This document shows, in pieces, positions 8,403 through 37,539 of a DNA stretch of 64,000 nucleotides (its first letter is position 1; every line of letters starts with the position of its first letter). The DNA comes from a virus. Taxonomy: Duplodnaviria > Caudoviricetes. The notes under the pieces are model-generated. The model searched no databases, was not told the DNA's origin, and saw only the letters and a list, made by a program, of their open reading frames with translations. The stretch spans positions 1 to 64,000 of the IMG/VR virus record IMGVR_UViG_2599185230_000001. One strand, given 5' to 3'. The translations under genes and the position numbers were made by a program.

Positions 8403-8434
8403 CTGCTTATGTCGTCTTTTAATCCTACTGCGCA

Positions 8435-19505: not shown

Positions 19506-19509
19506 TGGT

Positions 19510-19941: not shown

Positions 19942-19956
19942 TGATAATCACCGCCT

Positions 19957-21396: not shown

Positions 21397-21624
21397 TTAT
21401 TTCACCTTCTTATTCATAAATTTCTTAACAGCCTGCTTCACTTCGGCTACGGTAAATTCATTTGCCGTATTACCGTGCAGGGCGCCGATCACCACTTCGG
21501 GAGGCACTTTAAATATGGCTTGCGCATTGGCAACCAAATCTTTTTTGGGATATTTACATTCAACCGGACCAGCGACTGTTTCTTTTTTAGCAATGTTTTC
21601 CTTGGTAATTTCACTTGCTGGCAT
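21397..21624 (-). CDS. Small phage protein preceding the sheath
   Basis: Coupled ORF; F.V..EV..GAL....FTV.E...A...F motif. Confidence 0.7.
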   Translation of the reverse strand: MPASEITKENIAKKETVAGPVECKYPKKDLVANAQAIFKVPPEVVIGALHGNTANEFTVAEVKQAVKKFMNKKVK

Positions 21625-21639
21625 TTAAGAACCACCACC

Positions 21640-22482
21640 TTAACTAATTGTTCCCCGGCTGCCAACGCGCATCATCAACGGCACATCGGCTGCCGGCCTG
21701 CTGGTATATCTGAAAAGGTTAAAAGTAAGCTGTCCCTTGGATATCGCATCCGCCTTAAAATCACAGGACGGATTCTGAATCGTCATATAAGTCCTGTCCT
21801 CCAGGTTCAGCGGTATCTTAATGCTTTCTTCCAGCTTTCCAAGCAATAGCAGCGCCGCCTGCATTTCATCATTAGGCGTACGGCCAAGTACATGTCCGCT
21901 TATTTGACGCACAACCTTATAAATTGCCTTACCAGCATTTTCAGACCTGTATCCGGATAACCGCCATAAAACCGAAGGCCGCATATATCCACGCGGCCAG
22001 CGGTTAACATATATTGTCCAATCCTGACCGATAGTTTGCGCCGTCCAGCTTGCCAGCGCAGTAAGCCATGGATCATCCTGCACCGTTTCCGGTACCTGGC
22101 CAGGACGCAGGGCCATGACTGTAAAGCGCAGGCAGCGTGTCAGCACATCCCATTCGTCTACGACAGTGTCGTCGCCCAAAACACCTTGATACATAAGAGT
22201 AAACGCATCATTATCCAGAGTTTCAAGCCTGGTATTATGCATAGCTGCCACTGTATCATTGCCCAGTTGATCAAGATCACCAAATGTTGTCCTGGCCACA
22301 CAAGGCCATATCTCAACATGACGTTGAAAGTTTACCCAAGAGCTTTTATCATCTTCAGAACCAAGTCTTAGCACCAGATATGGTTTAACGGTCTTGGCGC
22401 CGGCGGCATGTGGTTCATAAACCCGACCACCAATAGCGGGGAGGGAGGTGGCTAATTTTTGCCTTATTGTCTCTCGCACCAT
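21640..22482 (-). CDS. Tail completion/terminator-like protein
   Basis: Position between neck and sheath genes. Confidence 0.6.
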   Translation of the reverse strand: MVRETIRQKLATSLPAIGGRVYEPHAAGAKTVKPYLVLRLGSEDDKSSWVNFQRHVEIWPCVARTTFGDLDQLGNDTVAAMHNTRLETLDNDAFTLMYQGVLGDDTVVDEWDVLTRCLRFTVMALRPGQVPETVQDDPWLTALASWTAQTIGQDWTIYVNRWPRGYMRPSVLWRLSGYRSENAGKAIYKVVRQISGHVLGRTPNDEMQAALLLLGKLEESIKIPLNLEDRTYMTIQNPSCDFKADAISKGQLTFNLFRYTSRPAADVPLMMRVGSRGTIS

Positions 22483-22931
22483 CAACCCTCCCAATAATCC
22501 TGAATAGTTTGCTTCAGGCGATTCTTATGACTTTCAAGGGTCGGCTTTATAATCGGCTTTGCTTTCATACCCTTAATTTGCCGCACCATCAGAGGCTTGC
22601 TTGGATCTTTTGGATTGGGAATGCCGGGAATAACCAGTACTCTCGCATTAACCGGTTTTATAGGCTGCCGGGAAGGCCCGAATATCCCGGTGCCTTCCTC
22701 CAACATTGGTCCGTAATCCTTTCCATGGGCCAGGTATAGGTGAAACCCGTCACTCTCCAGGTCCACACCGGAATGAATAGCCTGCCTGGCATGCCCGGTC
22801 TGATCATTCCATGGAGCGTTTTGCTTGGCATATTGCTCCAGATTCCCAGCCCAGGCATCAAGTAAACCATGAAAACCGGCCATTTTCTGCCGCATAAACC
22901 GTGCTACGCTCCCCCCAATATTCATACCCAT
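22482..22931 (-). CDS. HK97 gp10-like neck protein
   Basis: AK.NAPW.D.TG.AR; Y...LE.GTG; G.KA.P. Confidence 0.8.
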   Translation of the reverse strand: MGMNIGGSVARFMRQKMAGFHGLLDAWAGNLEQYAKQNAPWNDQTGHARQAIHSGVDLESDGFHLYLAHGKDYGPMLEEGTGIFGPSRQPIKPVNARVLVIPGIPNPKDPSKPLMVRQIKGMKAKPIIKPTLESHKNRLKQTIQDYWEG

Positions 22932-23311
22932 CAGCTCACCAACTCCAAAGCTGCCTGGTAGCCTACCACTTGGCCTTGAACTATTTGGGGCTGCACAGAT
23001 ACTATGTTAAATGTACCGATACCAATAATTGTGAATTCATCAGTGATATTAGAGCCCTGCCTCAGATCAGCCTGCCAGTCGGCCAATAACCCCCAGCCAT
23101 CAGCAATATCCTTATTGCCAACCAGGTGCGAAACTGTTTTAGTGCTATCTCCAACCTGGAATATCCGAACGTTTAAAGGGCCAATTTGAGATGAAACATC
23201 CGTAAAATGGCCTTCCGTTTCCAGCTTTTCCGTCCGGTTAATGATAATAGTTACCGGGTTTTGATTAATTGACCAGATAATATTATTTCTCCTTGTTGTC
23301 ACCAAATCCAT
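22931..23311 (-). CDS. Head closure/head-tail joining protein
   Basis: Size and position. Confidence 0.6.
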   Translation of the reverse strand: MDLVTTRRNNIIWSINQNPVTIIINRTEKLETEGHFTDVSSQIGPLNVRIFQVGDSTKTVSHLVGNKDIADGWGLLADWQADLRQGSNITDEFTIIGIGTFNIVSVQPQIVQGQVVGYQAALELVS

Positions 23312-23670
23312 TATATTACCCCCGGTTTAGTCAATTTGAGAATGACGCCGGAAGATACCTTACCATTAGTTGCCGATGTGCCTAGAGAAGTGTATTGGTT
23401 AGCCATAGTTATAGCGTGAGCCAATTGATCCTTCAGTGACGTCAGATCATATTTCTCCTGACCCACGCTGTAACTTTCAATATCGCCCTGCAGTAGGCTG
23501 GCCTTAATAATCCACCCCTTGCCGGCAGCTTGGTAAACATTTTCCGCTTCCGTCAGCAGCTCATCCAGCTCCGATTCCAGGAACCTGGTGTCAGTCTCCG
23601 TACCTCCGGCAGGAATAATCTCATTCAGATATTTTCTAAGCCTGATTCGCAATTCTGCAGTAGAAGTCAT
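23311..23670 (-). CDS. Head-tail adaptor protein
   Basis: F...ELD.LL; ESYSVG.E.Y; follows capsid. Confidence 0.65.
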   Translation of the reverse strand: MTSTAELRIRLRKYLNEIIPAGGTETDTRFLESELDELLTEAENVYQAAGKGWIIKASLLQGDIESYSVGQEKYDLTSLKDQLAHAITMANQYTSLGTSATNGKVSSGVILKLTKPGVI

Positions 23671-23697
23671 CAACAGCACCGCCTTTCTGCAACATTA

Positions 23698-24744
23698 TTA
23701 GGCAGGCAGAGTTAGCTCTTCCACTGCATTGGCGGGGGAGGCAATCACACCGCGCCGCGCCCGGCCCACCATGGCATCTTCCACTAACCTGGTTATATCT
23801 GCTCCGGAAGCGTCAATGCGCAGATCATGCTTAACCAGCTCCCGGAAATATTTCTGACCCTCGATAAGGTATGCCTTGCCGGAATCCACGCCTGAATAGT
23901 CGTAAGTCTTTTCTCCAACCACCGCGCTCCAACCATCATAAAAAATAAGAGTATCAATCTGACTGATGGCGGGATAGATGGTGCCGCCGATTTGCATGCG
24001 CTGCAGGCATTCCTCGATATCCCAGCGATTACTGGAATGGGCCAGTAGAATATTGGGACGCCGCGGGCTTCTGGTATCCGTGTTCTTGTCCAGGGACGCA
24101 TGAATCAACCCGGCCTTGATGGTATTGCGGAGCTTTTCCAACTTTGTAGCGCCGGCAGCATCCGCTGCAGTTTTGTTTTTGGCCGCATAATTGAATTTTA
24201 TAATGGGGCTTAAATGAATATGGTTCAGCAAAGCGTTATATGCTTCACCAAAAGACCTATTGGCCTCGGCCATCTCCCAGGTCTTATCGTACAGCACCAT
24301 ATCCTCGGTCCACTGCAGCCCGGCGGCGCAAGTGATAATCGGCACGGTATCTTTGACACCGATCTTGCGGGTACCGAACTTAACTTCCTCCAGCTCCGCA
24401 TGCACCAAAAAAATCACCTGAGCTCCGGTAAAAGGCTTAACATCAACAAACTCAGTGAAATTAGCATCTTCCGTCCGGCGATAAATGGGAGTATAGAGTA
24501 AAGGAACGCTCTCGCGGCCCAGTTCCAAGTCAATTACTGATTTCTGCACCACATTTTCCAGCCCGGCAGGAGTGGTGATCATTTCACCCACAGGATTGGC
24601 CAATTCAAAAACTTCCATCTCTCCATTAACAATTTTCTTCTTGACCGACTTAATCTCACCACTGGGGGAAACGTAAAGCACATCCGCCTCAATGGTTTGC
24701 TTGCGTCGATCTTCCTTCAGAATTTCACTGCTTATGATTTTCAA
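23698..24744 (-). CDS. Major capsid protein
   Basis: 348 aa after scaffold and decoration genes. Confidence 0.7.
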   Translation of the reverse strand: MKIISSEILKEDRRKQTIEADVLYVSPSGEIKSVKKKIVNGEMEVFELANPVGEMITTPAGLENVVQKSVIDLELGRESVPLLYTPIYRRTEDANFTEFVDVKPFTGAQVIFLVHAELEEVKFGTRKIGVKDTVPIITCAAGLQWTEDMVLYDKTWEMAEANRSFGEAYNALLNHIHLSPIIKFNYAAKNKTAADAAGATKLEKLRNTIKAGLIHASLDKNTDTRSPRRPNILLAHSSNRWDIEECLQRMQIGGTIYPAISQIDTLIFYDGWSAVVGEKTYDYSGVDSGKAYLIEGQKYFRELVKHDLRIDASGADITRLVEDAMVGRARRGVIASPANAVEELTLPA

Positions 24745-24759
24745 AGCTTTCCACCTCCA

Positions 24760-25185
24760 TTAATGGGCCAGGACCTGCGGCCCAAGCTTAAGCCAGATAA
24801 CATTATTGGTGTCCTTGGCCTGGGTCACACGGCCCACGGGCCGGTTCTGTGGATTTCCGCTGGCATCATTGTTTGGCGCTGTAGTCAATAGACCGGTACC
24901 AACCGACCAATATATCTTGTCGCCCTTATCAAATGCGTCCGCCACGGTTATCTGACTGTTTTCATATTCCGCCGGCTCAATATTTAAAGTCACTTCCGCC
25001 GGTACCGAACCGGATGCAACTGCAGAGCCCTTGTAGCTGATAACATTGCCGTCAGCATCGGTTTTTATTGATTGCACCGCCATGCCAAAAAAACCATCCA
25101 ACAAGTAAAAATTACCCTGCGTGATGACCGTGCTTGCCGGCACGCTAACCACCACGGATTGACCGTCACTAACTTTTCTACCCAT
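24760..25185 (-). CDS. Capsid decoration protein (DUF2190-like)
   Basis: G.FG.A; F..GD.IYW; VG.V. Confidence 0.7.
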   Translation of the reverse strand: MGRKVSDGQSVVVSVPASTVITQGNFYLLDGFFGMAVQSIKTDADGNVISYKGSAVASGSVPAEVTLNIEPAEYENSQITVADAFDKGDKIYWSVGTGLLTTAPNNDASGNPQNRPVGRVTQAKDTNNVIWLKLGPQVLAH

Positions 25186-25198
25186 GATTCTTACCTCC

Positions 25199-25381
25199 TT
25201 AGCTTAAAACTTGTACCTGCTGTGAAGCCGGCTTTCCGTTTGACAACACCTTTGGCCCGGGCTGTTGTGCCGGCGTGTTCTTGATTATGCCCTGGCGGCT
25301 GACAGGACGGTTTTCAAATTTACCGCCGGCGCCATTACTGACGAATGATTGTGACTGGGGATTGAACCTGACCAGACTCAT
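25199..25381 (-). CDS. Small low-complexity protein
   Basis: 60 aa, ATGA overlap with the upstream stop, fills the gap. Confidence 0.45.
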   Translation of the reverse strand: MSLVRFNPQSQSFVSNGAGGKFENRPVSRQGIIKNTPAQQPGPKVLSNGKPASQQVQVLS

Positions 25382-26499
25382 ATAGACACCTTCCTGGCCA
25401 CCAGCATACCGCCTGACTCTTTCGTTTTCTGCCCGCCGCCGATATACGCAGGCCGGTCAATAAGCAACTTACTCAAAGCATCTTTTAACGCCTGGTCATT
25501 CAGTACCTTATCAATTTCACCGGCAACCTGTTCTTTAGTAGCGCCTTCCGGGATGGCCAGCATCTTTTTAACAAGTGACTGGGCAATTTCACCACTGACT
25601 TTTTCTTTAATGACCTGGTCAATCAGCTCAGCCTGGCCGGCTTTTTTCTTCTCTTCCAGAGCTTCATTAGCTTCCTTGGCCCGGGCCAATACATCCATCT
25701 CACCTGTAATCCCCAGTGCTTCCCGAACTTTACCCAGCAATTCCTCGTTACCTTTCATAGCCTCAAGCCATTTTGCGTCCAATTCTCCGGCCAGAGACGA
25801 GGCTGTCCAGCCCATTTCGCCGGCCAACTGGCCCATGGTGATTTCCCGGCCATTAAGCATTTTTTTCAACACTGCAATCAGTTCCTGAAAATTCATATGT
25901 TGAGCACCTCCAATAATTTGATCCATCTCTCCCGTGGCCACAATGCGCGTCGGCATCCCGGCCCGGTCCAGAGGCGTCCAGTCAATGGACATGGGCATAT
26001 AATCCACTACTTGCGTTTCCCCGGCGACTTTTATGAGTTTCGGAATACCAAAGATAGAAACTTGGTTGATACGGTTGGACCTGATCCACCGTTTCAAGTC
26101 TTTAGCCGCAGCATCAACCACACCTCGAAAATAGGCCTTTCCGTCCTTCCAGGCAGCGCCTACCCAGTGAGTTACAGGTGGTTTAAACTCACTTTCCACA
26201 TCTTCAGGCTTCTGATGCCCCAAGAAGCCTGAAAGTGTCTTTTCCTGGACGTGCTTGACGATGGCTTGAATAGCTTCCGGTTTGTAATTCCAGCCTCGTT
26301 TGGACCTACCAGCCGGTACTTCCATCACAACTTCCAGCGGGTCTTCATCTCCGGCTTTAAGGGTTGTCAAGTCTACCCCAGGCGCTAATGGTATATCATC
26401 CGGCTTTATTTCACCGGAAATGCCGGCCTGGAGATAAACCACCGGCTCATTATGGCCGGCCATTTCTCCAACCGGTTGTAACAACCAAAATACCTGCAT
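25378..26499 (-). CDS. Prohead protease/scaffold (Mu I/Z position)
   Basis: N-terminal GFLGH...VSIFG domain, C-terminal coiled coil with repeated GEM motifs. Confidence 0.65.
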   Translation of the reverse strand: MQVFWLLQPVGEMAGHNEPVVYLQAGISGEIKPDDIPLAPGVDLTTLKAGDEDPLEVVMEVPAGRSKRGWNYKPEAIQAIVKHVQEKTLSGFLGHQKPEDVESEFKPPVTHWVGAAWKDGKAYFRGVVDAAAKDLKRWIRSNRINQVSIFGIPKLIKVAGETQVVDYMPMSIDWTPLDRAGMPTRIVATGEMDQIIGGAQHMNFQELIAVLKKMLNGREITMGQLAGEMGWTASSLAGELDAKWLEAMKGNEELLGKVREALGITGEMDVLARAKEANEALEEKKKAGQAELIDQVIKEKVSGEIAQSLVKKMLAIPEGATKEQVAGEIDKVLNDQALKDALSKLLIDRPAYIGGGQKTKESGGMLVARKVSI

Positions 26500-26770
26500 A
26501 AATTCACCTCCCTGCAAATTGGTAAAAAAATAAAAGCCCTTTAAAAGGCTCTTACTCCCAATTAACTTATTACAGATTAAATTTTAGGCTCATACACAAG
26601 AGCTGGTTACAAATTTCACTGGCCGCTTAAAAGCCGTTTTAAGCCACCTTTTTTATATAGGTAGTATGTTTACACCTAAATAACTTTTTACCCCCGTGAT
26701 CACGCGTGATCACGGCCTTAGAATTGATTTCAAACTTTACCCTTACCCCTTTATTTAGTCTTTCAACTGA
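26500..26770. other. Central intergenic region, candidate strong gyrase site
   Basis: Contains the prophage midpoint (26569); alternating AT/GC tracts; 22-bp palindrome at 26694-26715. Confidence 0.45.
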
Positions 26771-27118
26771 TTACTCACTTGATACATGTCCGATAAACTC
26801 AAATGCTTCTTTCGGAGTCACCCCATTCCATAGGTCAGACATAGCGAGCATTGGAAATAATGCTCCTGTAAGATAAGTAATAAAACTCTCTGAGGGCTGA
26901 CGTTTAACCAAACCCGTCTGCTTAACCTTTTCAGCAGCCAAATGCAGCATTTCGTGTAATAGGATATGATGTTTACCAACCGGATGTTGGTCAACCTCGA
27001 TACCAATTTCACCTGTTTTCCGGTCAAAATAACCAAGCTTACCGCTAAGTGATTTTTCAACCACTGGTAGTAATTGCCCCGGGGCAGCAATTATACTTTT
27101 CGGTAGTGGATTCGCCAT
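26771..27118 (-). CDS. Small HEXXH protein
   Basis: G.F......I.I...HILLHEMLH...E. Confidence 0.65.
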   Translation of the reverse strand: MANPLPKSIIAAPGQLLPVVEKSLSGKLGYFDRKTGEIGIEVDQHPVGKHHILLHEMLHLAAEKVKQTGLVKRQPSESFITYLTGALFPMLAMSDLWNGVTPKEAFEFIGHVSSE

Positions 27119-27187
27119 TTATAATCAACACCTTTATGTGTTATTCGCCCCTACAAAAGATGCCGTAATCTTCTCCGCTAAGACCAT

Positions 27188-27421
27188 TTAGGGAATACGA
27201 GAAAAACCCCGGAAATCTCCCGGCGGGTCGTATAAGTTCCTGACGCCTCGTTTCATCACCGCCACCATATGCCGGTTAACCTCATCGGGAAGCTGGTTAA
27301 ACTGTATATCCGGGTACAACCCCGGAAAAGTTGCCTTTAAAACTTCCTTACAATCTTCAAACGTACCGGCTTGCATAAAGCGCTTAAGCGCATCGTCAGG
27401 CATATTAAGCTTCTCCCGCAT
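27188..27421 (-). CDS. Small protein overlapping the MuF stop (candidate immunity protein)
   Basis: 77 aa, coupled to MuF. Confidence 0.5.
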   Translation of the reverse strand: MREKLNMPDDALKRFMQAGTFEDCKEVLKATFPGLYPDIQFNQLPDEVNRHMVAVMKRGVRNLYDPPGDFRGFSRIP

Positions 27422-29021
27422 CGCCCATCAGCCTCCTGATAAATTCAAAAAGCAAAATATCTCTTGCCTTTAAATTTTCCGGATTAAAAATGTATTCCCT
27501 ATAACCTTCTGCAAAGTACTCTCTTAAACTCCGAGGATTAAAGAACCATTTTCCGCTTTTTTGATATATCAGCCCTAATTCTTCCAGCAGGCAGGATTGA
27601 TAAACACTTATAAATTTATTAATTTCCCTATGTTCCAAACGCAAGAATGGTTTTTGAAAGCCAACCTCTGTAACAAAATTGGCAAGGGTTATTTCTTCCA
27701 GCGGTATACCATTCTCCAAAACCTCAATAAATTCCTTCTTATGGTAAACCTGTAGGAAATCCTCTATGGCATGCCCGGTCTCATGTAAAACGTCTTCCAC
27801 CCCAACATCTTTAGTCAGCAAGTACATTTTACCCAGCCTGTCATAGCGGGACCAACCTTCAGTCCATCCTGTGGCAACCTGGACACCCATCGCTTTCAAA
27901 ATATCAATATGATTATCCGGCAGCTTTTCCAGCGCCTGGCTGATTACTTCCCTGTCCGCTGCATCATCATAATCAGGTGTCATGTTATATATAGGCAATC
28001 CCTTAACTTCAGCATCAGGCTGTCTATGTACCCGCTGAAACCAGCTTTCAATCCTGGCAGTTTCAACGCTCGGACCTTGTTGTTGCCAGCTTTTAAGTTT
28101 TTTCAAAAGCTCCTCCGGCTGCTCATGTACAGCAACAATGGTGCATAAACAATTTGGATGAGGATATTCCGGCTCGCTGCCCGGCGCATAAACACCATGC
28201 CCAAGACCTTCGTCATGATCGGCGTAAGCATCACAGATATCAGCTATCGGATGGGAACTGCTTAAAATCCATTTGACACCTTTGTAGCTGGGTGAATTAC
28301 GGCCTGATTCCACAACACCCTTCCAGTATGCCTTGCTGGTCTCCGCTCTGGCCAAACGCAGCGCCTCATATGAAATATCCTTGGGTATCCTGTTTTGCAG
28401 CCGTTTCATCATATCAGGATAGTCTTCCACCAGAGTTACGGCATCTTTCCGCACATACTGCTGCAGCAGTTTAGCTGTCTCAATCGCACTCTGGCCGGTT
28501 GCTACCGCCTCCTCCAGGATATTCTGGATCGCTTCCCGTGACTTTTCACCCTGCTGCCAAATCCGGTCGGATAGCTTCAGCCCTTTGGTGTGCTGGCGCC
28601 ACATGGCTTCAACTGCCCGATTATTGACCCGGTAGAAAGATGACCTAATATCATCATCAATCTTTACCCCGCCGCCCTCCAGAAGCTTTATGGTAATTCC
28701 GGATGAAATGCCTGCGCCGGCTTCCACTGCATCCTGAATATCCCGGCGCAAGGTGGAGTTTAACCCATCGCGCAGCTTATCCGCCTCACCCAGCAGCATT
28801 TGCTCCACGTTTCGCAAGTGGGACTTCTTAAACGGCGTCAAAGGATTAGCCTTAGCCGTATCCTTAACCCTGGCGGCCACCCTGTCCGCCAGGCGAATAT
28901 ACCTATTCCTTATCTCAGGGTCCTGGCGCTCCCGGATGGCAATATACTTTTTCCTGGCCTCCAGGGCAAACCTGGTATAGGCGCCGGAGACATCCTTGGT
29001 TTGGGTGATTTCATCAGCCAT
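27405..29021 (-). CDS. MuF head morphogenesis protein with C-terminal zincin domain
   Basis: LSDRIW; RLARAE; C...A; HPNCLC; then HETGH...REYFAE. Confidence 0.85.
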   Translation of the reverse strand: MADEITQTKDVSGAYTRFALEARKKYIAIRERQDPEIRNRYIRLADRVAARVKDTAKANPLTPFKKSHLRNVEQMLLGEADKLRDGLNSTLRRDIQDAVEAGAGISSGITIKLLEGGGVKIDDDIRSSFYRVNNRAVEAMWRQHTKGLKLSDRIWQQGEKSREAIQNILEEAVATGQSAIETAKLLQQYVRKDAVTLVEDYPDMMKRLQNRIPKDISYEALRLARAETSKAYWKGVVESGRNSPSYKGVKWILSSSHPIADICDAYADHDEGLGHGVYAPGSEPEYPHPNCLCTIVAVHEQPEELLKKLKSWQQQGPSVETARIESWFQRVHRQPDAEVKGLPIYNMTPDYDDAADREVISQALEKLPDNHIDILKAMGVQVATGWTEGWSRYDRLGKMYLLTKDVGVEDVLHETGHAIEDFLQVYHKKEFIEVLENGIPLEEITLANFVTEVGFQKPFLRLEHREINKFISVYQSCLLEELGLIYQKSGKWFFNPRSLREYFAEGYREYIFNPENLKARDILLFEFIRRLMGDAGEA

Positions 29022-30559
29022 TATTGATTACCACCGGCCAACTCCCTGTCGATCCGAGCTTTTTGCTCATCCAGGAACTGGCTGTCCTCCAGCCGCTGCC
29101 GCAGCAACCTAGTCTTCATAATCCGCTCCCGTTCCCCGGGCACTTCCGGATCATCGCTTATATAATCATTCATGGTATTAACAAACTGTTTCAAAAATTC
29201 AGTAGCAGCCTCATCACTCATAATCTCAGCTTCAAGAGCCGTCTTCAGGGCTTCAGTTACATTTTTCAGGATCTCAACCACTTCTTTTTCATCCCTGGGA
29301 TCAACCTCGTCCCACTCTAACACCGTGGCATAGGAGCCGGCCTTTTTATCACCGGCCAAGTCCGTCAAGGCCAGCACGATCCGGGCCAGCCGCTGCCAGC
29401 TCTCGGTAAACTGTTCCCGCTTCCGGGCAATCTTACGCACCAGAATGGGCATTTGCTCTTTAACCGAACTTAAAGAGCTGGGAGTATGCACTCCAAAAGC
29501 AAACTCAGGCGTTTCCGATGTGTCCACGATACAGTAGAATAGGAATTTCAAAAGCTCCGTGGTATCACCGATAGCACTTTTAACCTCAATGAATTCGGCA
29601 TCTTCATCTTCACTAAACAAAAAAAACTCATGACCATCCAAGCTGATGGTGCCGCCCTGGCTGGCAAAAGCATAAGGGTCGCTAATACCAAAATTGTTAC
29701 GCAGAAATCCGGCCAAGTCCTTTATCGTAAATTTCAACCTTGGCGTACTATGCATCTTGCTACCCTGCAGTGCATGCAGCAACACATCATGGTAAGCCTT
29801 TAAAAATGGCTCAATCGGCTCTAAGTCACTCTGACCGAATTCTTTAGTATCGTCACCTTCGTTTTTGAAGTGGACAATAGGGATAAAGCCCCAGGGGTTG
29901 TCTTCCTCTATATAAGACGCCAAGCCCGCCGGGATATCTCCTGATATCCCGATAACTCTTCTGGTGGCTGAAATCCTTTGCGTCACCAAGGCCCTTTTGG
30001 CATTATCAAGGTCATCAAGCCAATCGTAGGCCGCTTGGATCACATATTCTTTAACCTGGTTATTATTAAGCGGGTCCTTAATAATTTGCACTACTTGTTC
30101 AGGCGGCAGCATATTAAATATCAGCCTTACTTTTTGCTCGGGATAGAGAGCTTGCTCGTGATTTTCCTCCCTGGTGATCCAAACAAACCAGTCACCGTCC
30201 CGCATGGCATTGCGCTGCACCTGCATCATTCGCGAGGTGTTATTGCTGAAAAAATCATCCAGTACCTCCTGGGCCGTTTCGTCTTCAGACTTAAATCTCG
30301 GCACACCCATAAAGCCGGCAGTGGTATTGATTACACCTTTGGAAAAGCCGGCGCCAAGTTTATATTTATCGTCAGTATTGTCATACAGCGCCCTGGCCCG
30401 GGCATAATCAACCCGGCTGGAATCAAGCTTATAGGCTGAAAAATATGACCCGGTCCGCAGAGCCCAAAAGGAGGTAAAAACACTAAAAGCGTTACGCAGC
30501 TTGGAAATCTCACCGGCAGCCCTTTTGTACCATGCAGCTTTATTAACGGTTTTTCTCAT
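29021..30559 (-). CDS. Portal protein
   Basis: NPWGFIPIVHFKN...G.SDLE; follows terminase. Confidence 0.88.
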   Translation of the reverse strand: MRKTVNKAAWYKRAAGEISKLRNAFSVFTSFWALRTGSYFSAYKLDSSRVDYARARALYDNTDDKYKLGAGFSKGVINTTAGFMGVPRFKSEDETAQEVLDDFFSNNTSRMMQVQRNAMRDGDWFVWITREENHEQALYPEQKVRLIFNMLPPEQVVQIIKDPLNNNQVKEYVIQAAYDWLDDLDNAKRALVTQRISATRRVIGISGDIPAGLASYIEEDNPWGFIPIVHFKNEGDDTKEFGQSDLEPIEPFLKAYHDVLLHALQGSKMHSTPRLKFTIKDLAGFLRNNFGISDPYAFASQGGTISLDGHEFFLFSEDEDAEFIEVKSAIGDTTELLKFLFYCIVDTSETPEFAFGVHTPSSLSSVKEQMPILVRKIARKREQFTESWQRLARIVLALTDLAGDKKAGSYATVLEWDEVDPRDEKEVVEILKNVTEALKTALEAEIMSDEAATEFLKQFVNTMNDYISDDPEVPGERERIMKTRLLRQRLEDSQFLDEQKARIDRELAGGNQ

Positions 30560-30565
30560 TTAAGC

Positions 30566-32305
30566 TCACCTATATATCCGAAGTTTTTTAAGCACATCCA
30601 AAAGACTTTGGTCAACCTGCTGCTTAGTCCTTGCCAAAGTGCGGCAGGCTTCCAGAGCGTCAGGGCCGTCGTCATTCGACGCCATGGGAAAGAACTTCAA
30701 TTGTTCTAAAAGTCGCTTATGCCTGGCATTAAATTTGATGTAGCGGTTCTTGATATCAGGCTGCAAAGTTTGAATGCGGCCATATTTATCACCTGTTTGA
30801 TTAATCTCTTCAATAGGCAGATAAATACCTTCCTCAGCACTGCGCCGAGCCAATACTTCCTTTAGGTACCACTGAAACTGGTTGGTCTCACAACCGAACA
30901 AGGTATAACCACGACCATATGTTAGCTTCAGCCAGCGTTCCTTTTCCAGAATATCCTCAATTATTTGATCCGGATGACGTCGCTCAATATCGGCATCCAG
31001 GTCATACAAATATCCTGTCTGAATATCCCTGGCCAATGTAATAATACAGGAAAAGTCGCTTTTTTTCTTCTTGCCTTTGCCCCCCAGGGAGGGGTCCACA
31101 AAACCAAAGAAACGGTACCGTTTTTCCCTAAAATCAATAGCGGCTTCATTGTAGTATTCAAACCATTCTTCTTGAAACAAACAATCATCCTGGTTGATCG
31201 GCTCGTTCTGATACTCACTGTTGAATGATGCTTCACCTTCAGTTACTTTGTCCACCATCAACTTATAATAAGAATTCTTGTCTTCCCAAAGCACCTTGGT
31301 TCCTTGAAGCATCTTATCACGGTTGGACATAAAAAAGGACCGTGCGTCTTCTTCATGGTTCTCATTGGAAAGATCAATATAAATCTCTTCCCATTGATCC
31401 CAAAGGTCTTGCCGTTGGGCGAAAGAAAGAACAGCTTTATACTTAACGGTCCTGTATCCCGGGTTATTTAATATCTTAGCCAACAAGCTGTCATAATGAA
31501 GTAAGGTACCTATATAAATAAAATCTGTGTAACTGTCGCCGGCCTTGCTTACCGCTTTGAAATACCAATTGTTCAGCTTTTTTCTTTGTTCAGGTGTATT
31601 GACGTTTTCATCATTCTCAATATCATCAAGAACAATTAAATCAGGACGCCAGTTACGATGTTTCCGGCCCCTGATTTTTTTCCCTGAACCTATAGCCTCA
31701 ACCTTGATATCAGCGGAGGTGAGTAATACGTTATTACGCCAAACCTTTCCCACCAGGTCGCCAAAGTCTTCACGAATGGCCTCGTTTTCCTCCAGCTCCT
31801 CCCGGATGCTTTCAAGGAAGCCCTCAGCTTGCTCAGAGGAATCGGAGATAATCACAATGTAGTGTTTATATTCGTAAAGAACTGCATGGGTGGTATCTTT
31901 AAATGTAACGTTTGTGGACTTGGCGTGCCCACGTGGTGCCGCAATTGCGCGTTTGCATCCCGGCAGTTTGCTTATTTTTTTGCCAATATTTTTGAGAATA
32001 GCAGACTGGTTTTTTAAAACACCATCTTGCCATATGGCATCCAGTTCCCTGTGAAAATCAGGAGTTTGGCGGCTGAAGTAGTGGGGGAAATATGCTTTCC
32101 CGAAATACTCCAGATCGATAGCCCCAAGCTTTTTTCTTATCCCGTGTTTGCCGGTCAGGGGCTTTCCATCCCGGTAGTCTTGCAAAAGCTTCAAACGCTC
32201 GGGCGAAGAGTCCCTCTGCAGGTATTTCTCCATGAGCATTTTTAGCTCTTCCACCCCCTGGTGCACTTCCAGGTTTCGTTCCCTGATGTCTTTTAAAATG
32301 CTCAC
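30566..32305 (-). CDS. terL: Terminase large subunit
   Basis: APRGHAKST; RPDLIVLDDIE; VDPSLG; DDGPDALE; GTG start at 32305 after GGAGG. Confidence 0.95.
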   Translation of the reverse strand: MSILKDIRERNLEVHQGVEELKMLMEKYLQRDSSPERLKLLQDYRDGKPLTGKHGIRKKLGAIDLEYFGKAYFPHYFSRQTPDFHRELDAIWQDGVLKNQSAILKNIGKKISKLPGCKRAIAAPRGHAKSTNVTFKDTTHAVLYEYKHYIVIISDSSEQAEGFLESIREELEENEAIREDFGDLVGKVWRNNVLLTSADIKVEAIGSGKKIRGRKHRNWRPDLIVLDDIENDENVNTPEQRKKLNNWYFKAVSKAGDSYTDFIYIGTLLHYDSLLAKILNNPGYRTVKYKAVLSFAQRQDLWDQWEEIYIDLSNENHEEDARSFFMSNRDKMLQGTKVLWEDKNSYYKLMVDKVTEGEASFNSEYQNEPINQDDCLFQEEWFEYYNEAAIDFREKRYRFFGFVDPSLGGKGKKKKSDFSCIITLARDIQTGYLYDLDADIERRHPDQIIEDILEKERWLKLTYGRGYTLFGCETNQFQWYLKEVLARRSAEEGIYLPIEEINQTGDKYGRIQTLQPDIKNRYIKFNARHKRLLEQLKFFPMASNDDGPDALEACRTLARTKQQVDQSLLDVLKKLRIYR

Positions 32306-32423
32306 TTGACCACCTCCATCCCCGGGCATAGCTTCGCCATCCAACACTTTCCTTCAAAGTGCAGCACTTTACTTCGTTTGTTCTCGTAGCGCCACGTCAC
32401 CGCCGAAACAGGTGCCGCTTTAC
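32306..32423 (-). promoter_or_regulatory. Structured RNA between the NusG paralog and terL
   Basis: CACC-U-GU-UUCG-GC-GGUG hairpin; AAAGUG/CACUUU/AAAGUG alternative pairing; AUGGC-GAA-GCUAU hairpin. Confidence 0.6.
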
Positions 32424-32918
32424 TTACGATGCCTGAATAAACTCAATCCCGAGGTTAACCTCCATTTCTTTCTGAAAGAGCGTTAACCTGACCTTTGCTC
32501 TTCTTTTGCGCTTATCAATCTTTACAATATAGCCTTCCATGCCCGTAAGCGGGCCGTTAATAACTTTAATTGATTCGCCGATTTCCAGGGTGGACAATCC
32601 AACCAATTCATCATCCTTACACAACCACAAAACATTAGCCATTTGATCATCAGGCACTGGAATGGGTCTGTGGTGAGCTAAAAAATTGATGACACCTGCT
32701 ATTCGCCTGGCCGCATAATAATTCTTTTCATCCAGATCCATTTGCACAAAAACATACGATGGGAAAAGAATTCTGACGACTTCCCTAAAAGTACCCTTGT
32801 GTCGTTCAATAACTTTTTGCCTGGGCGCCAGGGCATTTATGCCGGGTAGATCCAGAAGCAGCTTCTCCTTGATAGTGGTTTCTTCCCCAGTCATGACGTG
32901 GAGCACATACCATTTCAT
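32424..32918 (-). CDS. NusG paralog, LoaP-like antiterminator
   Basis: NGN: WYVLHV.TG.E, LFPSYVFV; KOW: GPL.G.EG.IVKIDKRKRRAKV. Confidence 0.9.
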   Translation of the reverse strand: MKWYVLHVMTGEETTIKEKLLLDLPGINALAPRQKVIERHKGTFREVVRILFPSYVFVQMDLDEKNYYAARRIAGVINFLAHHRPIPVPDDQMANVLWLCKDDELVGLSTLEIGESIKVINGPLTGMEGYIVKIDKRKRRAKVRLTLFQKEMEVNLGIEFIQAS

Positions 32919-33484
32919 GATTCTTCAGCTTCCAATCTTTCAGCCACTCTGTTGGCTACCTGGATCAGCCTTTCACACAATTCAGGCTCCACTCCTTCAA
33001 GCTCTGCATAAACTTCCTTCTTAAATTCCGCCAGGGCAATTTTAGCTTCCTGAGCCAGGTCGGCCCTAATTCTATCCTTATAAACCTTAGTCCTCGACAG
33101 AGCCACCATTACCCGGGCCGCCTTATCCAGGGGCATCTCATCCCATTCCTCTTGGGCCTGGGCCAACTTCTTGGTTAGCTCACCGCTCATGATCTGCAGC
33201 GCCCCTTCGGTATAGTCGGCATCGGGATTTTTCTTAATTGCCTCAATCAACATCCTGGTTTGTTCCTGGGCCTCCAGCAGCCTTTGGGTAGCGTGATTGG
33301 TTCGCAGCGCATATCTGCCGATAGCGCTTTTGGAGATGTCATACCCTTCGGACTTTAGGTGCTCGGATATATCATTGTACGTATTATTGGTATCCAGAAG
33401 CATAGCCTCAACTTTTAATTTCAGCTCTTCCGGCAGCTCATCCACTTTAGACCTTGTTCTTGTCCGTTGCCTTTGCTCACCCAC
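32915..33484 (-). CDS. Mu gp27-like (DUF3486) putative terminase small subunit
   Basis: R.RSKVD.LP...Y..I...L...GY.ISKSA.GRY. Confidence 0.85.
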   Translation of the reverse strand: MGEQRQRTRTRSKVDELPEELKLKVEAMLLDTNNTYNDISEHLKSEGYDISKSAIGRYALRTNHATQRLLEAQEQTRMLIEAIKKNPDADYTEGALQIMSGELTKKLAQAQEEWDEMPLDKAARVMVALSRTKVYKDRIRADLAQEAKIALAEFKKEVYAELEGVEPELCERLIQVANRVAERLEAEES

Positions 33485-33798
33485 TAGATGTCAACTCCCG
33501 GATCATCTTTGTGGCCCTCAACCAGTAATTCTCCCTCCGGGGTTAGCCTGATCATGGCATCGTTTAAATAAGCAGTGTAAGAGGTCACCTTATCGTTGGT
33601 GTACTCAATATAGCCCCTTTTCTCCAGATAGTTTAAATACACAGAAATGTCGGGGGAGATAATTATTCCATCCCTTAGCATGACATTTACCAATTGGCGA
33701 CATAGCAGGCTATTGTTATGTCCTTTTACAAGTGACCGGATAATATAGCCTCTAACTGCGGCGTTCTTAGCAGCCATCTGCTGTCCGCCTTCAATCAC
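33484..33798 (-). CDS. Mu gp26-like winged-helix protein
   Basis: L.YL...GYI...LT..G..LVEG...DPGV; start uncertain. Confidence 0.7.
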   Translation of the reverse strand: MIEGGQQMAAKNAAVRGYIIRSLVKGHNNSLLCRQLVNVMLRDGIIISPDISVYLNYLEKRGYIEYTNDKVTSYTAYLNDAMIRLTPEGELLVEGHKDDPGVDI

Positions 33799-34087
33799 GC
33801 CTACCACCCCTTTCAATTGTTAGATATTCCAGCAGCTTATCCAGCTTTTTATCCATACCGGTTATTTTCCGGTCAACCGCATTCATGGCAGCTGCATGAT
33901 CTTCCCTGGTGGTATAGATAAAAGGCAGGTCACTTTTTAGGTTATTTAATTTATCCTCCACATCCTGAACCCGATTCTCGTTCTCCTTCATTCTGATTTT
34001 CAGGTCATTCATAGTGGTTTTTAAAAAATAACCAATTATGCCTATTCCAATCATTGTGGCCGTTTGCATCATCCAGCCAAAGTCCAT
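33791..34087 (-). CDS. Membrane-anchored coiled-coil phage protein (Mu gp25 position)
   Basis: N-terminal TM helix, LP..Y..RED motif. Confidence 0.65.
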   Translation of the reverse strand: MDFGWMMQTATMIGIGIIGYFLKTTMNDLKIRMKENENRVQDVEDKLNNLKSDLPFIYTTREDHAAAMNAVDRKITGMDKKLDKLLEYLTIERGGRRD

Positions 34088-34513
34088 TTAGATAGCACCT
34101 TCCTTGATTTCCAGCACCTTGGCTTCAATGGTGTTCCTAATGTATGCGTCAACGTCGCCCAGGGTAGCTTTCAAAGCATTTACATACTCAGGCTCCATAG
34201 TCTTCTTAATTTCATTAAATGCAACTTTTGATAGTTCGATCAAATCTTCCTTACTCTTGACGCCGTCTTTAACAGCCTGCCGCATCTCCTTAGCCACGGT
34301 TTGTTCAATTTTCTTAACAGTCTTTTCAGCTACATCATCCAGTCTAAAAATAGCATCATGGATGAGCCCGCGCTCTTCTTCGCTATCGATTTTGTTGGTC
34401 TCGGCAACCAATTTATCTGTCATTTTTTTAATGCCATAGATAGCGATCGAAGCAAGTAAAGTTAATACTGCCAAAGACAAATTGTACAAAAAATCCTGCA
34501 CTAACCCTTCCAC
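34088..34513 (-). CDS. Holin-like protein (LL-H type)
   Basis: N-terminal TM; V..IEQ; IEAKV.E.K. Confidence 0.6.
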   Translation of the reverse strand: MEGLVQDFLYNLSLAVLTLLASIAIYGIKKMTDKLVAETNKIDSEEERGLIHDAIFRLDDVAEKTVKKIEQTVAKEMRQAVKDGVKSKEDLIELSKVAFNEIKKTMEPEYVNALKATLGDVDAYIRNTIEAKVLEIKEGAI

Positions 34514-34540
34514 TATGGTCCACCTCCTTTCTTTATAAAA

Positions 34541-34579
34541 TAAAAAAATACCGGCAAGGCTTTTGCCTATACCGGTATT
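34541..34579 (-). terminator. Terminator after mor, overlapping a candidate late -10 (TAGAAT)
   Basis: AAUACCGGUA-U-AGGC-AAAA-GCCU-UGCCGGUAUU-UUUUU. Confidence 0.75.
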
Positions 34580-34631
34580 CTACTAATTTTGGCCGTAAGT
34601 TTATATTCCAAGCACTTCTAAGAATTAACTC

Positions 34632-34973
34632 TTATGAAGCATCTTGTTCATCTAAACCAAACCCGAAATCCAAGAGAGTTAATTGACCGTCATTAGCTGG
34701 ACCACATATTTCAACTATCCAGCGCTCACTTAAATTATATTTTTTGGCAAGTTCGGCATGATTATAACCATTAAACTCCTTTTTAATGTTAATATCCCTG
34801 GCCGGCCTTAAAAATGTATCTGCTTTTGGTATATAAATCGTTTTACCACCTAATATCTTAGCCAGCTTAATAAAATTCTCAATTCCGATTATCTCAGCCA
34901 GCTCTCTATAAGAATCAGGAATCATATCCAGAGTCAGATCATTTATCCAACTTTCTAGCACCAACAGGATCAC
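34632..34973 (-). CDS. Mor/C-family transcription activator
   Basis: IG.E...KL....GG..IYIPK...RD..I..EFNG.N..ELAKKYNLSER. Confidence 0.9.
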   Translation of the reverse strand: MILLVLESWINDLTLDMIPDSYRELAEIIGIENFIKLAKILGGKTIYIPKADTFLRPARDINIKKEFNGYNHAELAKKYNLSERWIVEICGPANDGQLTLLDFGFGLDEQDAS

Positions 34974-35027
34974 CCCCTATTATATGCCGAAAAAGGTTTA
35001 AAGGAAATGCCTTGTTTTTAATTGACA

Positions 35028-35840
35028 CTATTTCTGCGTACTAACCCCAACTTTATTCAGCACATACTCAATGGTACGTCGCATAAATACTGCACTTTCC
35101 GCTCTTGTAGTTGGCTTATCAGGATAAAATTTATTATCTTTATAACCTGAAACAAGTCCTTCTTTAGCTAACCACTCAATGTCACCAGCGGCATAGTGTC
35201 CTATAATATCCTTGAACATTGACAAAATCTCCTCCTTAAATTTTGTGTTCCACCATCCTTCATTTCCGTAAGACTCGTTAAAATCCACATTAATTCCCGC
35301 TAAAGCTTGATCGTTTTTATATTGATATATGTTTACATATTGGCTTTTTTTGCCCTGTGACCAAGCGTAAGTTTGCCAAAAGTTATTAACTACACCACGT
35401 CTGGCCATCTCCTCAACCACGTTAAATGAGCCATAAACACCAATATTATAATCAACTAAAACGCTGGCAGCTGCACCTAGATATTGTTCAATTACTGAAT
35501 AGTCTTTTGGTTGAGCATCATAATCCACTGCAAAATAAATAACTGTGCCTTTGGGCTGACCAATCTCCAAGGCCTCTTTGAGTGCTAGTGCCCCGTCAGC
35601 TTTTCCAGCGGCTGCACCACCAGTAGACCGGTTTGCTGATGTTTCAAACACGCTTATTATATTTAATCCGGCAGTGGTAATAGCTTCAGCCTCCTGTTTA
35701 GTAAGACGCTTCCATGCCATTGACGGAGTATTAGGCACTAAATAACGGCAAATAAACTTCATCCCGGTGGCTGCTATTGTCTTTGCTGTTTCAACAGTTA
35801 GCGGCGTGGCGCAATCAATACCTTTCATATTATTATTCAC
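35028..35840 (-). CDS. Endolysin: DUF1906 glycoside hydrolase plus SLH domain
   Basis: G.D; RYL; IYFAVDYD; GVYG; WQT.AWS; F.DI.GH.A...G.VSGY.D..F.PD...TRAE. Confidence 0.85.
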   Translation of the reverse strand: MNNNMKGIDCATPLTVETAKTIAATGMKFICRYLVPNTPSMAWKRLTKQEAEAITTAGLNIISVFETSANRSTGGAAAGKADGALALKEALEIGQPKGTVIYFAVDYDAQPKDYSVIEQYLGAAASVLVDYNIGVYGSFNVVEEMARRGVVNNFWQTYAWSQGKKSQYVNIYQYKNDQALAGINVDFNESYGNEGWWNTKFKEEILSMFKDIIGHYAAGDIEWLAKEGLVSGYKDNKFYPDKPTTRAESAVFMRRTIEYVLNKVGVSTQK

Positions 35841-36246
35841 CGTCCTTTTTCTCTCTTATTAATTCAATGGAGCTATTGTTCTTGATTAAATGGCTTTTTA
35901 ATGACCTAAACGATGACCAATATGGTAGATAGTAAGTATATTTAGCTTCAGGATCTTGAAGACCGCGCAAACGCTTTGATATTTTTTTCATTGCAGCCTT
36001 ATGTTTTTGATTATAAACTGATTTTTTCACTGGGCAACAAAAGCGCCGCCTCTCTTCGCAATCATCCAATAACCATTTATACTCAAATATACCATTTACA
36101 TATACTATTATCCCATTCTTCATTTGACTGAGTCTTTTCAAAACAAGTGCAACCTTATACCCATCACATTTCAGCTCAACGTGACTAAATATAGATTGCA
36201 ATTGTTGTTCAACTTCTTTCCAATCTTCATTAGTCAATTTAACCAC
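35833..36246 (-). CDS. Hypothetical phage protein
   Basis: ORF in middle operon with SD. Confidence 0.7.
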   Translation of the reverse strand: MVKLTNEDWKEVEQQLQSIFSHVELKCDGYKVALVLKRLSQMKNGIIVYVNGIFEYKWLLDDCEERRRFCCPVKKSVYNQKHKAAMKKISKRLRGLQDPEAKYTYYLPYWSSFRSLKSHLIKNNSSIELIREKKDGE

Positions 36247-36254
36247 ATCCTTAT

Positions 36255-36671
36255 TTACTTGAACTGGTTAATTCCAATCAACTCTCTTACGGGAACTCCT
36301 GCTTTCTTCAGAGGAAACCACACATCATAGTAAAACATGTGTCTAAAGTATCCCCTGGCATAACGTATACTTCCGTCGCCATAGTCACTAAAATTTTCCG
36401 GCCTTCTAATGTCTAACGGGTTACCCTGGAACAGAGCAAGTTTTATGCAAAAAGCAAAAGTGTGACCGGTTCCGCGCCCCTCGATGTAACATTTTCCGTC
36501 ATGGTTATGACTCAACCTGGCACCCTCAAAATTTCCACTACCGAAAACTACACACGGGCATATATATAATGGATAATCCTTTCCATGAAAAATGAAGTCA
36601 ACTTGCCATGGATAGAGTTTCACACCAAGGGCACGTTCTATTAATTCCAGCGGTACCATTTGTTCGCGCAT
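36255..36671 (-). CDS. Hypothetical phage protein
   Basis: ORF in operon with SD. Confidence 0.65.
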   Translation of the reverse strand: MREQMVPLELIERALGVKLYPWQVDFIFHGKDYPLYICPCVVFGSGNFEGARLSHNHDGKCYIEGRGTGHTFAFCIKLALFQGNPLDIRRPENFSDYGDGSIRYARGYFRHMFYYDVWFPLKKAGVPVRELIGINQFK

Positions 36672-36713
36672 AATTCACGTCCCTTTTTTAAATGTTTTTG
36701 GTTGAAATGTTCA

Positions 36714-37241
36714 CTAAGCCGCTTCCTTCTGCAATTCCTCCCGCAACACATCTGCCAACCTGGGCAGTAACTTTTGCCCAAACGCCTTGATGTCGGAAGG
36801 ATAATCGTAGCAGGCAAATTCGTGGGCTTCATCAATTTTCGTCTCGTCGTGCCAGCGAGTGAAATCTATTACCGATATAAAATTATGTTCATATTCCTTT
36901 ATCAGGTCCCATTCTTCTCTGGCAAATTCCTTTGAGTAAGAACCGTCGCGGCGGTAGTACAGGATATGTTCTTTAATTGACTTAATGGTGTTTTCTCCAT
37001 CAAACTCCTTTTCTTGTCCTTGAAAAAGCTTTTTAATGTAATACTCGTTATCTGAACCATGTTTAATGTCGATGAAAAATTCCCGGAAGTCCTTACAGCC
37101 GTGATGTGTCCACTTAAAGGCATAATTGCCATAATCGGTTACTGCCGCAAACATCCCAGTGGAGTCTAGGAGGAATATTCCCCAACCTTCGATGCTGTCA
37201 ATAGGTGGCAGTGAATATCGCCAGAACTTAATATCGCTCAA
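36714..37241 (-). CDS. Hypothetical phage protein
   Basis: AAGGAGG SD; D.G.Y.F.W motif. Confidence 0.7.
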   Translation of the reverse strand: MSDIKFWRYSLPPIDSIEGWGIFLLDSTGMFAAVTDYGNYAFKWTHHGCKDFREFFIDIKHGSDNEYYIKKLFQGQEKEFDGENTIKSIKEHILYYRRDGSYSKEFAREEWDLIKEYEHNFISVIDFTRWHDETKIDEAHEFACYDYPSDIKAFGQKLLPRLADVLREELQKEAA

Positions 37242-37302
37242 ATCTTAATCCTCCTTTGTTTCACACTTTTTAGCTCCTGCCGTTCCCTGGTTGTACTGTG
37301 AA

Positions 37303-37539
37303 CTAAGCTTCCTGTATATCTTCAATCTCTGTCAAAAGTATGTTAGTAATATTGCCATCCTCATCCGCAATAACAATTTTATCGTCAAGTATTTCATAAA
37401 TCTCTGCCGCATGACAACTGCCATCTTTTGTCCAAATGTCTGCCGAATCATAGGGACCTAATTCAAAATTATCATCCATTTCGTCGCCCTGATTGGTGTC
37501 TTTTTCAACAAAAAGCTTTTTGACAACGTCTAATTTCAT
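37303..37539 (-). CDS. Small acidic hypothetical protein
   Basis: AAGGAGG SD; very Asp/Glu rich. Confidence 0.65.
   Translation of the reverse strand: MKLDVVKKLFVEKDTNQGDEMDDNFELGPYDSADIWTKDGSCHAAEIYEILDDKIVIADEDGNITNILLTEIEDIQEA

Follow-up and report, generated by a model that had tools for sequence, protein, structure and literature searches.

How would a Mu-like phage use a NusG paralog encoded just ahead of its terminase gene, and does it also carry the site at which such a factor is loaded? The question is raised by a 64,000-nucleotide stretch of viral DNA (positions 1 to 64,000 of IMG/VR record IMGVR_UViG_2599185230_000001; hereafter the window), the source of which is a Mu-like transposable myovirus prophage. 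All genes of the region lie on the minus strand. A LoaP-like gene immediately precedes terL and the head and tail genes, some 24 kb in all, which run to a terminator at 8383–8404 where the late operon probably ends. The spacer between the LoaP-like gene and terL contains an element that resembles the Rfam motif RAGATH-28. We consider it probable, at roughly 0.7, that the phage supplies both a LoaP factor and the site where it is loaded, placed in front of the packaging and structural genes, forming a late switch like that of lambda Q; the binding, the pausing, the read-through and the overridden terminators are steps that we infer from the sequence. The observations of a first-pass annotation of this stretch were confirmed by our analysis, and its interpretation was partly supported.

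The protein encoded by the LoaP-like open reading frame (ORF) scored 163.3 bits on the NCBIfam model antiterm_LoaP (NF033641; cut-off 125 bits), covering model positions 1–165 of 166. On the other NCBIfam paralog models, the same protein stayed under the respective cut-offs (NusG, 82.3 bits; UpxY, 81.8 bits, cut-off 100; RfaH, 56.5 bits, cut-off 144.5). The Pfam NusG NGN domain was detected at 5.8e-20 and the KOW domain weakly (17.5 bits, cut-off 22.3), and the best PHROG was phrog_6386, 'transcription antiterminator' (7.7e-35). The closest solved structure was PDB 8f5g (residues 2–161 aligned, E 2.2e-26), with which the window protein shares the motifs IER.KG and IDKRK.RAKV. By these sequence comparisons the ORF is a LoaP-family NusG paralog, in agreement with the first-pass annotation, which had described an NGN-KOW, LoaP-like protein with a basic KIDKRKRRAK stretch between the gp27-like gene and terL.

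LoaP was also the top NCBIfam model for 10/10 representatives of other phage clades, as for the window protein, and its cut-off was exceeded by 5 of these 11 proteins. Across 55 distinct phage proteins, R39, G42, G122, L124 and R/K140 were invariant. E38-R39 and I134 of the window protein fall in the motifs matching 8f5g and may correspond to E40, R41 and I143, given as RNA-binding residues of BvLoaP in PMC12691694; I134 occurred in 31 of the 55 proteins. The host genome held no second LoaP above the cut-off. Its sole other NusG-family gene (contig C27, 815–1318(+), locus L227) scored 93 bits on the LoaP model, below the cut-off, and presumably encodes the housekeeping NusG. Among known phage genomes, 30 records had NusG-like matches, all with less than 60% identity and with no close relative among them.

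The terL gene starts at GTG 32303–32305, behind the Shine–Dalgarno (SD) sequence GGAGGTG at 32311–32317. This start is backed by three relatives (L001, L002 and L012), two of which (L001 and L012) have stop codons that block the other in-frame starts. The spacer therefore covers 32306–32423, and both the length of 118 nucleotides (nt) and the bulged UUCG hairpin reported by the first-pass annotation are present. The hairpin, termed P1, has the predicted fold ((((.((....)))))) with −4.6 kcal/mol. A second hairpin, P2, pairs CACUUU (32356–32361) with the downstream AAAGUG copy (32345–32350) and stands out from shuffled sequences (−6.5 kcal/mol, z = −4.4, 0/200 shuffles). The first-pass annotation had allowed CACUUU to pair with either of two AAAGUG copies. 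Both copies exist, but a switch between them was not conserved: the upstream copy is missing in the closest relatives, L017, L018 and L012, and the fold prefers the downstream pairing. The folding energy of the whole spacer was uninformative against shuffles (z = +0.81). As folding energy does not separate the spacer from chance, the case rests on conservation and covariation in relatives.

The Rfam model RF03052 (RAGATH-28) matched at 32331–32416 with 21.3 bits over its full length (1–85). The parts of RAGATH-28 were found in the same order and spacing, namely P1 with a UUCG-type loop, a CAUA-type linker, P2 and the 3' AUGGCGAAGC tail, and the last 10 of 10 bases of the model are identical in the window. 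Unlike the Rfam motif, the window's clade has GU/GC rather than GA/UC in the upper stem, a one-base bulge and the linker GAGAACA. The closest relatives scored 27.1 and 25.0 bits, and the clade as a whole spans 21–27 bits, under the gathering score. That score was reached by 7 of the 20 more distant loci tested, always at this same position. Judged by sequence, the window copy is a diverged relative of RAGATH-28 and not a member by the Rfam criterion. Canonical RAGATH-28 was absent from 151 sampled genomes of the phylum, and control genomes were likewise without a match.

We built a covariance model, R1, from one clade and a second, R2, from the 55 matches of R1; the window's clade contributed to neither. 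R2 recovered the element in the window at 22.6 bits, with all other matches at or below 12.8 bits, and in the 5.2-Mb genome the window copy was the sole match. The 53 distinct elements aligned in A7 showed 92.9% paired cells, compared with 69.4 ± 1.1% in shuffles (equalled by 0/500) and 33–54% in slid controls; A7 was fitted to the model and hence leans towards structure, and the slid and shuffled controls still fell far off. Changes on both sides of a pair occurred in 142 cells, against 44 in shuffles. In P1, 93.4% of the cells were paired and 6 of the 7 pairs carried changes on both sides; the P2 pairs covaried as well. A covariance model of the spacer across LoaP-carrying phages had been suggested in the first-pass annotation as a check, and the spacer structure proved to be conserved in both helices. 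The helices contain 57 G-U wobble cells (our tally of the per-pair table), which fit a structure on the sense strand.

Across the family, the lower stem of P1 is followed by a 5' bulge (one or two bases) and then by two fixed pairs that close a U-N-C-G loop. The pair next to the loop is G-C in 53/53 sequences, and the following pair is A-U (45) or U-G (7) in 52/53. The loops as aligned were UUCG (43), UACG (4), UGCG (4) and UCCG (1), with one sequence misaligned. The distance from P2 to GCGAAGC is exactly 3 nt in 53/53 sequences. All 12 positions of GGAUGGCGAAGC are kept in at least 50 of the 53, and a GC-NNN-GC core is present in 52; it is followed by N, Y (40/52), R (40/52) and a C-rich stretch. 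GCGAAGC is the most conserved part of the element. The first-pass annotation had noted it before the terL SD as a small hairpin; the sequence is there, and as a match to the ops-type core GCG-N-AGC of RfaH and UpxY it is more than the hairpin then described.

Two variants of this arrangement were observed. In L051-type loci (e.g. L051 3494–3510), L090, L091 and L092, the P1 loop region holds the TGA stop of the LoaP-like gene (UUGAUUCGUC), such that the gene end and the element start overlap. In L089 (3589–3612), L091 (3502–3525) and L092 (2735–2758), the tail pairs with the next bases (GGCGA-AGC-UCGCC) and a U-run follows, placing the conserved core within a short terminator-like hairpin. Two further pairings were considered and rejected. 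A pseudoknot between the UNCG loop and the tail CGAA fails, given that UACG, UGCG and UCCG loops keep the tail CGAA, and that GGCGCAGC occurs only in L025 and L028, yet the L028 loop is UUCG. For a third hairpin between the tail GGC and a downstream GCC, the C is invariant, whereas its supposed partner is G in 26, A in 14 and U in 12 sequences.

The element follows the LoaP-like gene. Two viral contigs whose proteins are 70% identical agree with the window in spacer architecture and likewise match RAGATH-28 weakly. A scan with the protein alignment gave 71 viral and 80 genomic loci. The phage-context loci numbered 73, of which 67 had at least 300 nt downstream. The motif GGATGGCGAAGC, with up to 2 mismatches, was present in 61/67 of these between −60 and +600 nt around the LoaP-like stop codon; in the remaining 6 the tails are variant or the stretch ends early. 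A motif-first search, using the DNA pattern alone, returned 58 viral stretches, 54 of them with at least 600 nt upstream, and a LoaP-like ORF stood upstream on the same strand in 54/54. All 53 distinct elements (53/53) sit behind LoaP-like ORFs, whose proteins form 16 clusters at 50% identity and 30 at 70%. The candidate cis RNA that the first-pass annotation placed behind the gene of the factor and in front of the structural operon is a conserved element with a genuine UNCG hairpin, and it keeps this position before packaging and structural genes in 16 protein clusters of related phages. The next gene after the element varies (terS-like, two unrelated terL types, or a methyltransferase) while the LoaP-like gene is constant; therefore, the element follows LoaP and not the terminase.

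Small ORFs were found between the LoaP-like gene and the element in some loci. A Cys-rich ORF of 53–62 amino acids (C..C...CP..C) occurs in several phage clades, at L034 (3480–3668), L038 (3498–3683), L062 (3491–3667) and L073 (2884–3045), and a different small basic ORF in L028 and, by eye, also in L003. Conceivably, they encode a protein that partners the factor. The tail of the window also has an exact 18-mer match in a high-GC viral contig end, present as the same sequence at L014 12875–12892 and L015 6300–6317; this match, which has about 160 nt of DNA upstream of it, may be due to chance.

We applied R2 to the 73 genomic loci without phage context and obtained nine matches at E ≤ 1. One of these, L094, is phage-like, with the element downstream of the LoaP gene. 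In the other eight (L114, L121, L124, L133, L135, L141, L148 and L152), the hairpin and AUGGCGAAGC lie 36–301 nt upstream of the gene. All nine genes exceeded the LoaP cut-off (157–194 bits), the eight with upstream leaders scoring 174–194 bits, and both of the two chromosomal LoaP loci that we checked head polysaccharide clusters. The linker GUCAUA, the hairpin and AUGGCGAAGC-N-Y-R-CC recur in these leaders as in the phage element. At the 5' side, their hairpin is unlike P1 (AAAUCGUCGC...), and behind the tail there is often a U-run. The LoaP loci L228, L229 and L231 are without the RAGATH-28-type module; their upstream regions share a terminator-like hairpin and a conserved stretch (…UGUUGUAAACGGUCACUAAAGAAGGA…), which is possibly a different LoaP leader.

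NusG paralogs are known to be recruited by two kinds of signal. In Bacillus velezensis, the dfn and mln leaders contain a UNCG hairpin to which LoaP binds (PMC12691694); antitermination requires this hairpin and is aided by a downstream pause. The phage arrangement is similar in the protein family, in the UNCG hairpin within a transcribed target leader and, for the approximately half of phage loci that have a terminator, in the order hairpin, pause, terminator of the dfn system as that text gives it. It differs in having a phage-encoded factor whose targets would be the terminase and structural genes, and in a site that lies 3' of the factor's own gene, in some clades overlapping its stop codon; the near-invariant GGAUGGCGAAGC is a string absent from the main text of the mBio 2025 paper. 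RfaH and UpxY, as described in PMC11685472, are recruited when the polymerase pauses and a small hairpin with GCG..AGC stems is exposed in the non-template strand. That paper gives GCGGTAGC for the ops hairpin of RfaH and YGCGNAGCR for the UpxY consensus; in Bacteroides ops a pause hairpin lies directly upstream, the experimentally defined ops of the Bacteroides fragilis PSE locus being CTGCGAAGCATA.

In UpxY-opsX, as in the phages, a hairpin precedes GCG-N-AGC, and the PSE sequence can be set beside GCGAAGC and N-Y-R here. By sequence comparison, the phage tail behind P2 has the same core as the PSE ops and nearly the same geometry, P2 ending one base further from the core than the PSE hairpin as written. 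Unlike UpxY-opsX, the phage protein belongs to another paralog family, no UpxZ-like partner was seen here, and the phage flanks misfit Y...R; opsX is without the extra UNCG hairpin. The RfaH-ops system of Enterobacteria, in the same source, likewise pairs a NusG paralog recruited at a pause with a non-template GCG..AGC hairpin; it differs in the protein model and in an ops pause that is without a pause hairpin.

In lambda, the antiterminator gene Q lies immediately upstream of its engagement site (qut/tR'), and Q engages at a sigma-dependent pause close to the promoter. RfaH, for its part, acts chiefly against Rho. The phage locus has the same gene-then-site logic as lambda Q, and many of its relatives have a terminator before the late genes; the protein is unrelated to Q, and no promoter is needed here between gene and site. 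Upstream transcription, either Mor-dependent or by read-through, would first make gp27 and the LoaP-like protein. A polymerase crossing the site would then pause and pick up the factor, and the factor-loaded polymerase would resist intrinsic terminators through the terminase, head and tail genes.

More tentatively, and with somewhat less than even confidence, we propose that RAGATH-28 is a bipartite loading site with two readings: its UNCG hairpin would be recognised in the nascent RNA, as in LoaP systems, and its GCGAAGC in the non-template DNA at a pause stabilised by a hairpin, as for RfaH and UpxY. On this proposal, Mu-like Bacillota phages, each equipped with a LoaP of its own, would employ the site as a lambda-Q-like switch for terminase and structural genes. 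In our main reading, too, the loading site would combine three parts. The nascent-RNA hairpin with its UNCG tetraloop would be of the RNA type bound by LoaP proteins, and the second hairpin occupies what would be a pause-hairpin position. GGAUGGCGAAGC, followed by N-Y-R, would supply through its GCGAAGC core an ops-type mini-hairpin read on the non-template DNA of the paused polymerase. If Y is the pause position, the core would lie at −9 to −3 and the end of P2 at −13.

Terminators that such a polymerase might override were searched for in the late region. A terminator-like hairpin with a U-tract occurs within about 200 nt behind 25/53 elements, compared with 151/1763 background windows from the same loci, rows that are not independent. 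In the window, the only convincing internal terminator found is the candidate at 26524–26550, 5.8 kb downstream of the element within the late region, in a 250-nt gap before the head genes. The fold of 26522–26556 has an 11-bp stem and −11.8 kcal/mol (z = −3.3), and the site resembles the post-element terminators of relatives.

Several results weigh against a LoaP loading site at this position. The glutamate of the ER pair, the presumed equivalent of BvLoaP E40, is kept in only 20 of the 55 phage proteins. P1 is no more stable than shuffled sequences (z = −0.16; 77/200 shuffles as good). The 21.3 bits of the window copy are well under the RAGATH-28 gathering score of 45.3, and at the scale of the genome the match is near noise (E 0.37; the top hit, but with a runner-up at 20.0 bits); the decision therefore rests on relatives, where kinship among the related sequences makes the counts overstate the support. 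The element is also not a general LoaP site: a LoaP gene was present in 8 of the 401 genomes sampled from the phylum (the window's and 7 others), and 0/7 of the other LoaP loci match R2 or hold GGCGAAGC. A terminator-like site within 200 nt was found for 0/8 elements of the window's subgroup (the window, L012, L017, L018, L019, L020, L025 and L088). Terminator-like sites were not enriched at 18000–37500 (13 versus 18.9 ± 4.3 in shuffles), and the case for target terminators in the window therefore rests on the one candidate described above.

Other explanations account for parts of these data. The factor could be recruited by the ops-like DNA and pause module alone (P2 and GCGAAGC), as RfaH and UpxY are, the UNCG hairpin serving RNA stability, processing or 3'-end punctuation of the LoaP-like gene. 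The tail is indeed the most conserved part of the element, the 3' module is the sole part common to the chromosomal LoaP leaders, whose 5' hairpin differs, and the L032, L033 and L093 clades keep the tail while scoring poorly on P1. According to PMC11685472, Class-1 UpxY recognition proceeds via the NGN domain and DNA, not hairpin RNA. Recruitment through DNA alone nevertheless seems unlikely to us: the loop stays U-N-C-G whichever of the four bases stands at N, its adjacent G-C pair and the following A-U or U-G pair are fixed, and UNCG hairpins are known as LoaP ligands. Less probable still is that RAGATH-28 acts independently of LoaP, whether by regulating terminase expression in cis, as a site of RNA processing or as a small RNA, with the linkage reflecting conserved gene order only. 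Rfam lists RAGATH-28 as 'Gene; sRNA' without function or partner, the element always precedes packaging genes in phages, and 13 nt separate its end from the terL SD in the window. Against this stand the complete linkage to LoaP-like genes over 16 protein clusters with a varying downstream gene, a varying distance to the next start codon, and the occurrence of the 3' module before chromosomal LoaP genes of polysaccharide clusters, which have no terminase.

The region could also act as DNA. The deoxyoligonucleotide d(GCGAAGC) forms an unusually stable mini-hairpin, and the element adjoins terminase genes, so that the interval from the gp27-like gene to terL might be imagined to hold a site recognised by the terminase (pac) or else a GCGAAGC hairpin of the replication type. 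We regard this as very improbable in view of the G-U wobble cells in the helices, the constant location on the coding strand, the conservation across unrelated terminase types and the presence of the element in chromosomal LoaP leaders without phage genes. Finally, AUGGCGAAGC starts a 12-codon frame in the window, the stop of which overlaps the terL GTG start, and could open a small upstream ORF (AUG GCG AAG C...) translationally coupled to terL. This idea is hardly credible and was rejected: frame length and phase vary among relatives, AUG is replaced by AUA, ACG or GUG in L047, L036, L145 and L088, no SD precedes the AUG, and third positions are invariant.

RAGATH-28 is said to have been described first by Weinberg et al. 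2017. The main text of PMC5737381, reportedly the paper that introduced the RAGATH motifs, names neither NusG nor terminase. Within a literature search that did not extend to the RAGATH supplements or to the 2017, 2021 and 2024 LoaP papers, no paper ties RAGATH-28 or an ops-like GCGAAGC to LoaP or phage NusG paralogs, and none reports an ops-like core in LoaP leaders. Already known are the name of the protein, through automatic annotation, RAGATH-28 as an Rfam entry, and the published principle of LoaP with a UNCG hairpin. If a phage-borne LoaP is loaded at its own site, an orphan Rfam motif would gain a protein partner and a testable function, and a group of Mu-like Bacillota phages (16 protein clusters among the loci seen) would carry its own NusG paralog and site, adding to late control a layer of processive antitermination that Mu itself lacks. 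The site would unite two recruitment signals treated in the literature as alternatives, the LoaP RNA hairpin and the RfaH/UpxY ops DNA hairpin, and operon targeting by NusG paralogs could be tested directly on a short element (about 90 nt) for which many natural variants exist. Should the two-part reading be true, it would provide a mechanistic link between RNA-recruited and DNA-recruited NusG paralogs. The coordinates of the features are collected in Table 1.

Table 1. Features of the window around the LoaP-like gene and in the late region.
Feature	Position	Strand	Basis
LoaP-family NusG paralog, 164 amino acids, NGN + KOW, basic IDKRKRRAKV patch	32424–32918	−	Pfam, NCBIfam, PHROG and PDB matches
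RAGATH-28-like element, whole match	32319–32417	−	own covariance model R2, 22.6 bits, E ~0.007
P1, UUCG (UNCG) tetraloop hairpin CACC-U-GU[UUCG]GC-GGUG, one-base 5' bulge	32398–32414	−	fold and family alignment A7
P2, hairpin CACUUU-GAAGG-AAAGUG, candidate pause hairpin	32345–32361	−	fold and A7
GGAUGGCGAAGC tail	32331–32342	−	conservation in 53 sequences
GCGAAGC, tail core, candidate ops-like element of the non-template strand	32331–32337	−	likeness to known ops sites
Upstream AAAGUG copy, outside the conserved element	32365–32370	−	seen in the window sequence
Mu gp27-like gene	32915–33484	−	PF11985, 2e-31
Mor-family activator gene	34632–34973	−	PF08765, 8e-18
terL	30566–32305	−	NCBIfam terminase models; phrog_38 (terminase large subunit), 8.4e-110
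Intrinsic-terminator-like hairpin + U-tract, candidate target	26524–26550	−	read from sequence; absent from consensus-scan list
Strong terminator, likely late-operon end	8383–8404	−	−12.3 kcal/mol, z = −4.0
Weak terminator-like site between mor and the next gene	34553–34567	−	−5.9 kcal/mol, z = −0.7

In phage Mu, late control passes from Mor to C. The surroundings of the LoaP-like gene match those of Mu in the Mor-family activator, the gp27-like gene, the MuA-like and MuB-like genes and the myovirus tail; unlike in Mu, a LoaP-like gene stands between the gp27-like and terminase genes, and to our knowledge Mu has no NusG paralog. The stop of the gp27-like gene overlaps the LoaP-like start codon as ATGA. 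In 59 of the 71 viral loci the LoaP-like gene is preceded by a gp27-like gene, immediately so in 58, and a Mor match lies upstream in 58, whereas the terL type of the window follows in only 12. The first-pass annotation had inferred a two-tier late control, in which Mor activation would be joined by processive antitermination across ~24 kb; of this scheme, a Mor-family gene is present upstream (Table 1). The prophage region also contains genes for a helix-turn-helix (HTH) repressor, a tail sheath protein and a lysin.

Within the gap of 250 nt that precedes the head genes, a perfect 22-nt palindrome, CCGTGATCACG|CGTGATCACGG, lies at 26694–26715(−); downstream of it come an AT-rich promoter-like stretch and the terminator at 26524–26550. 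The palindrome region may function as an operator or as a second region of late promoter activity. The lysin (35028–35840(−)) combines an Rv2525c-like glycoside hydrolase domain with an SLH domain, which suggests an S-layer host.

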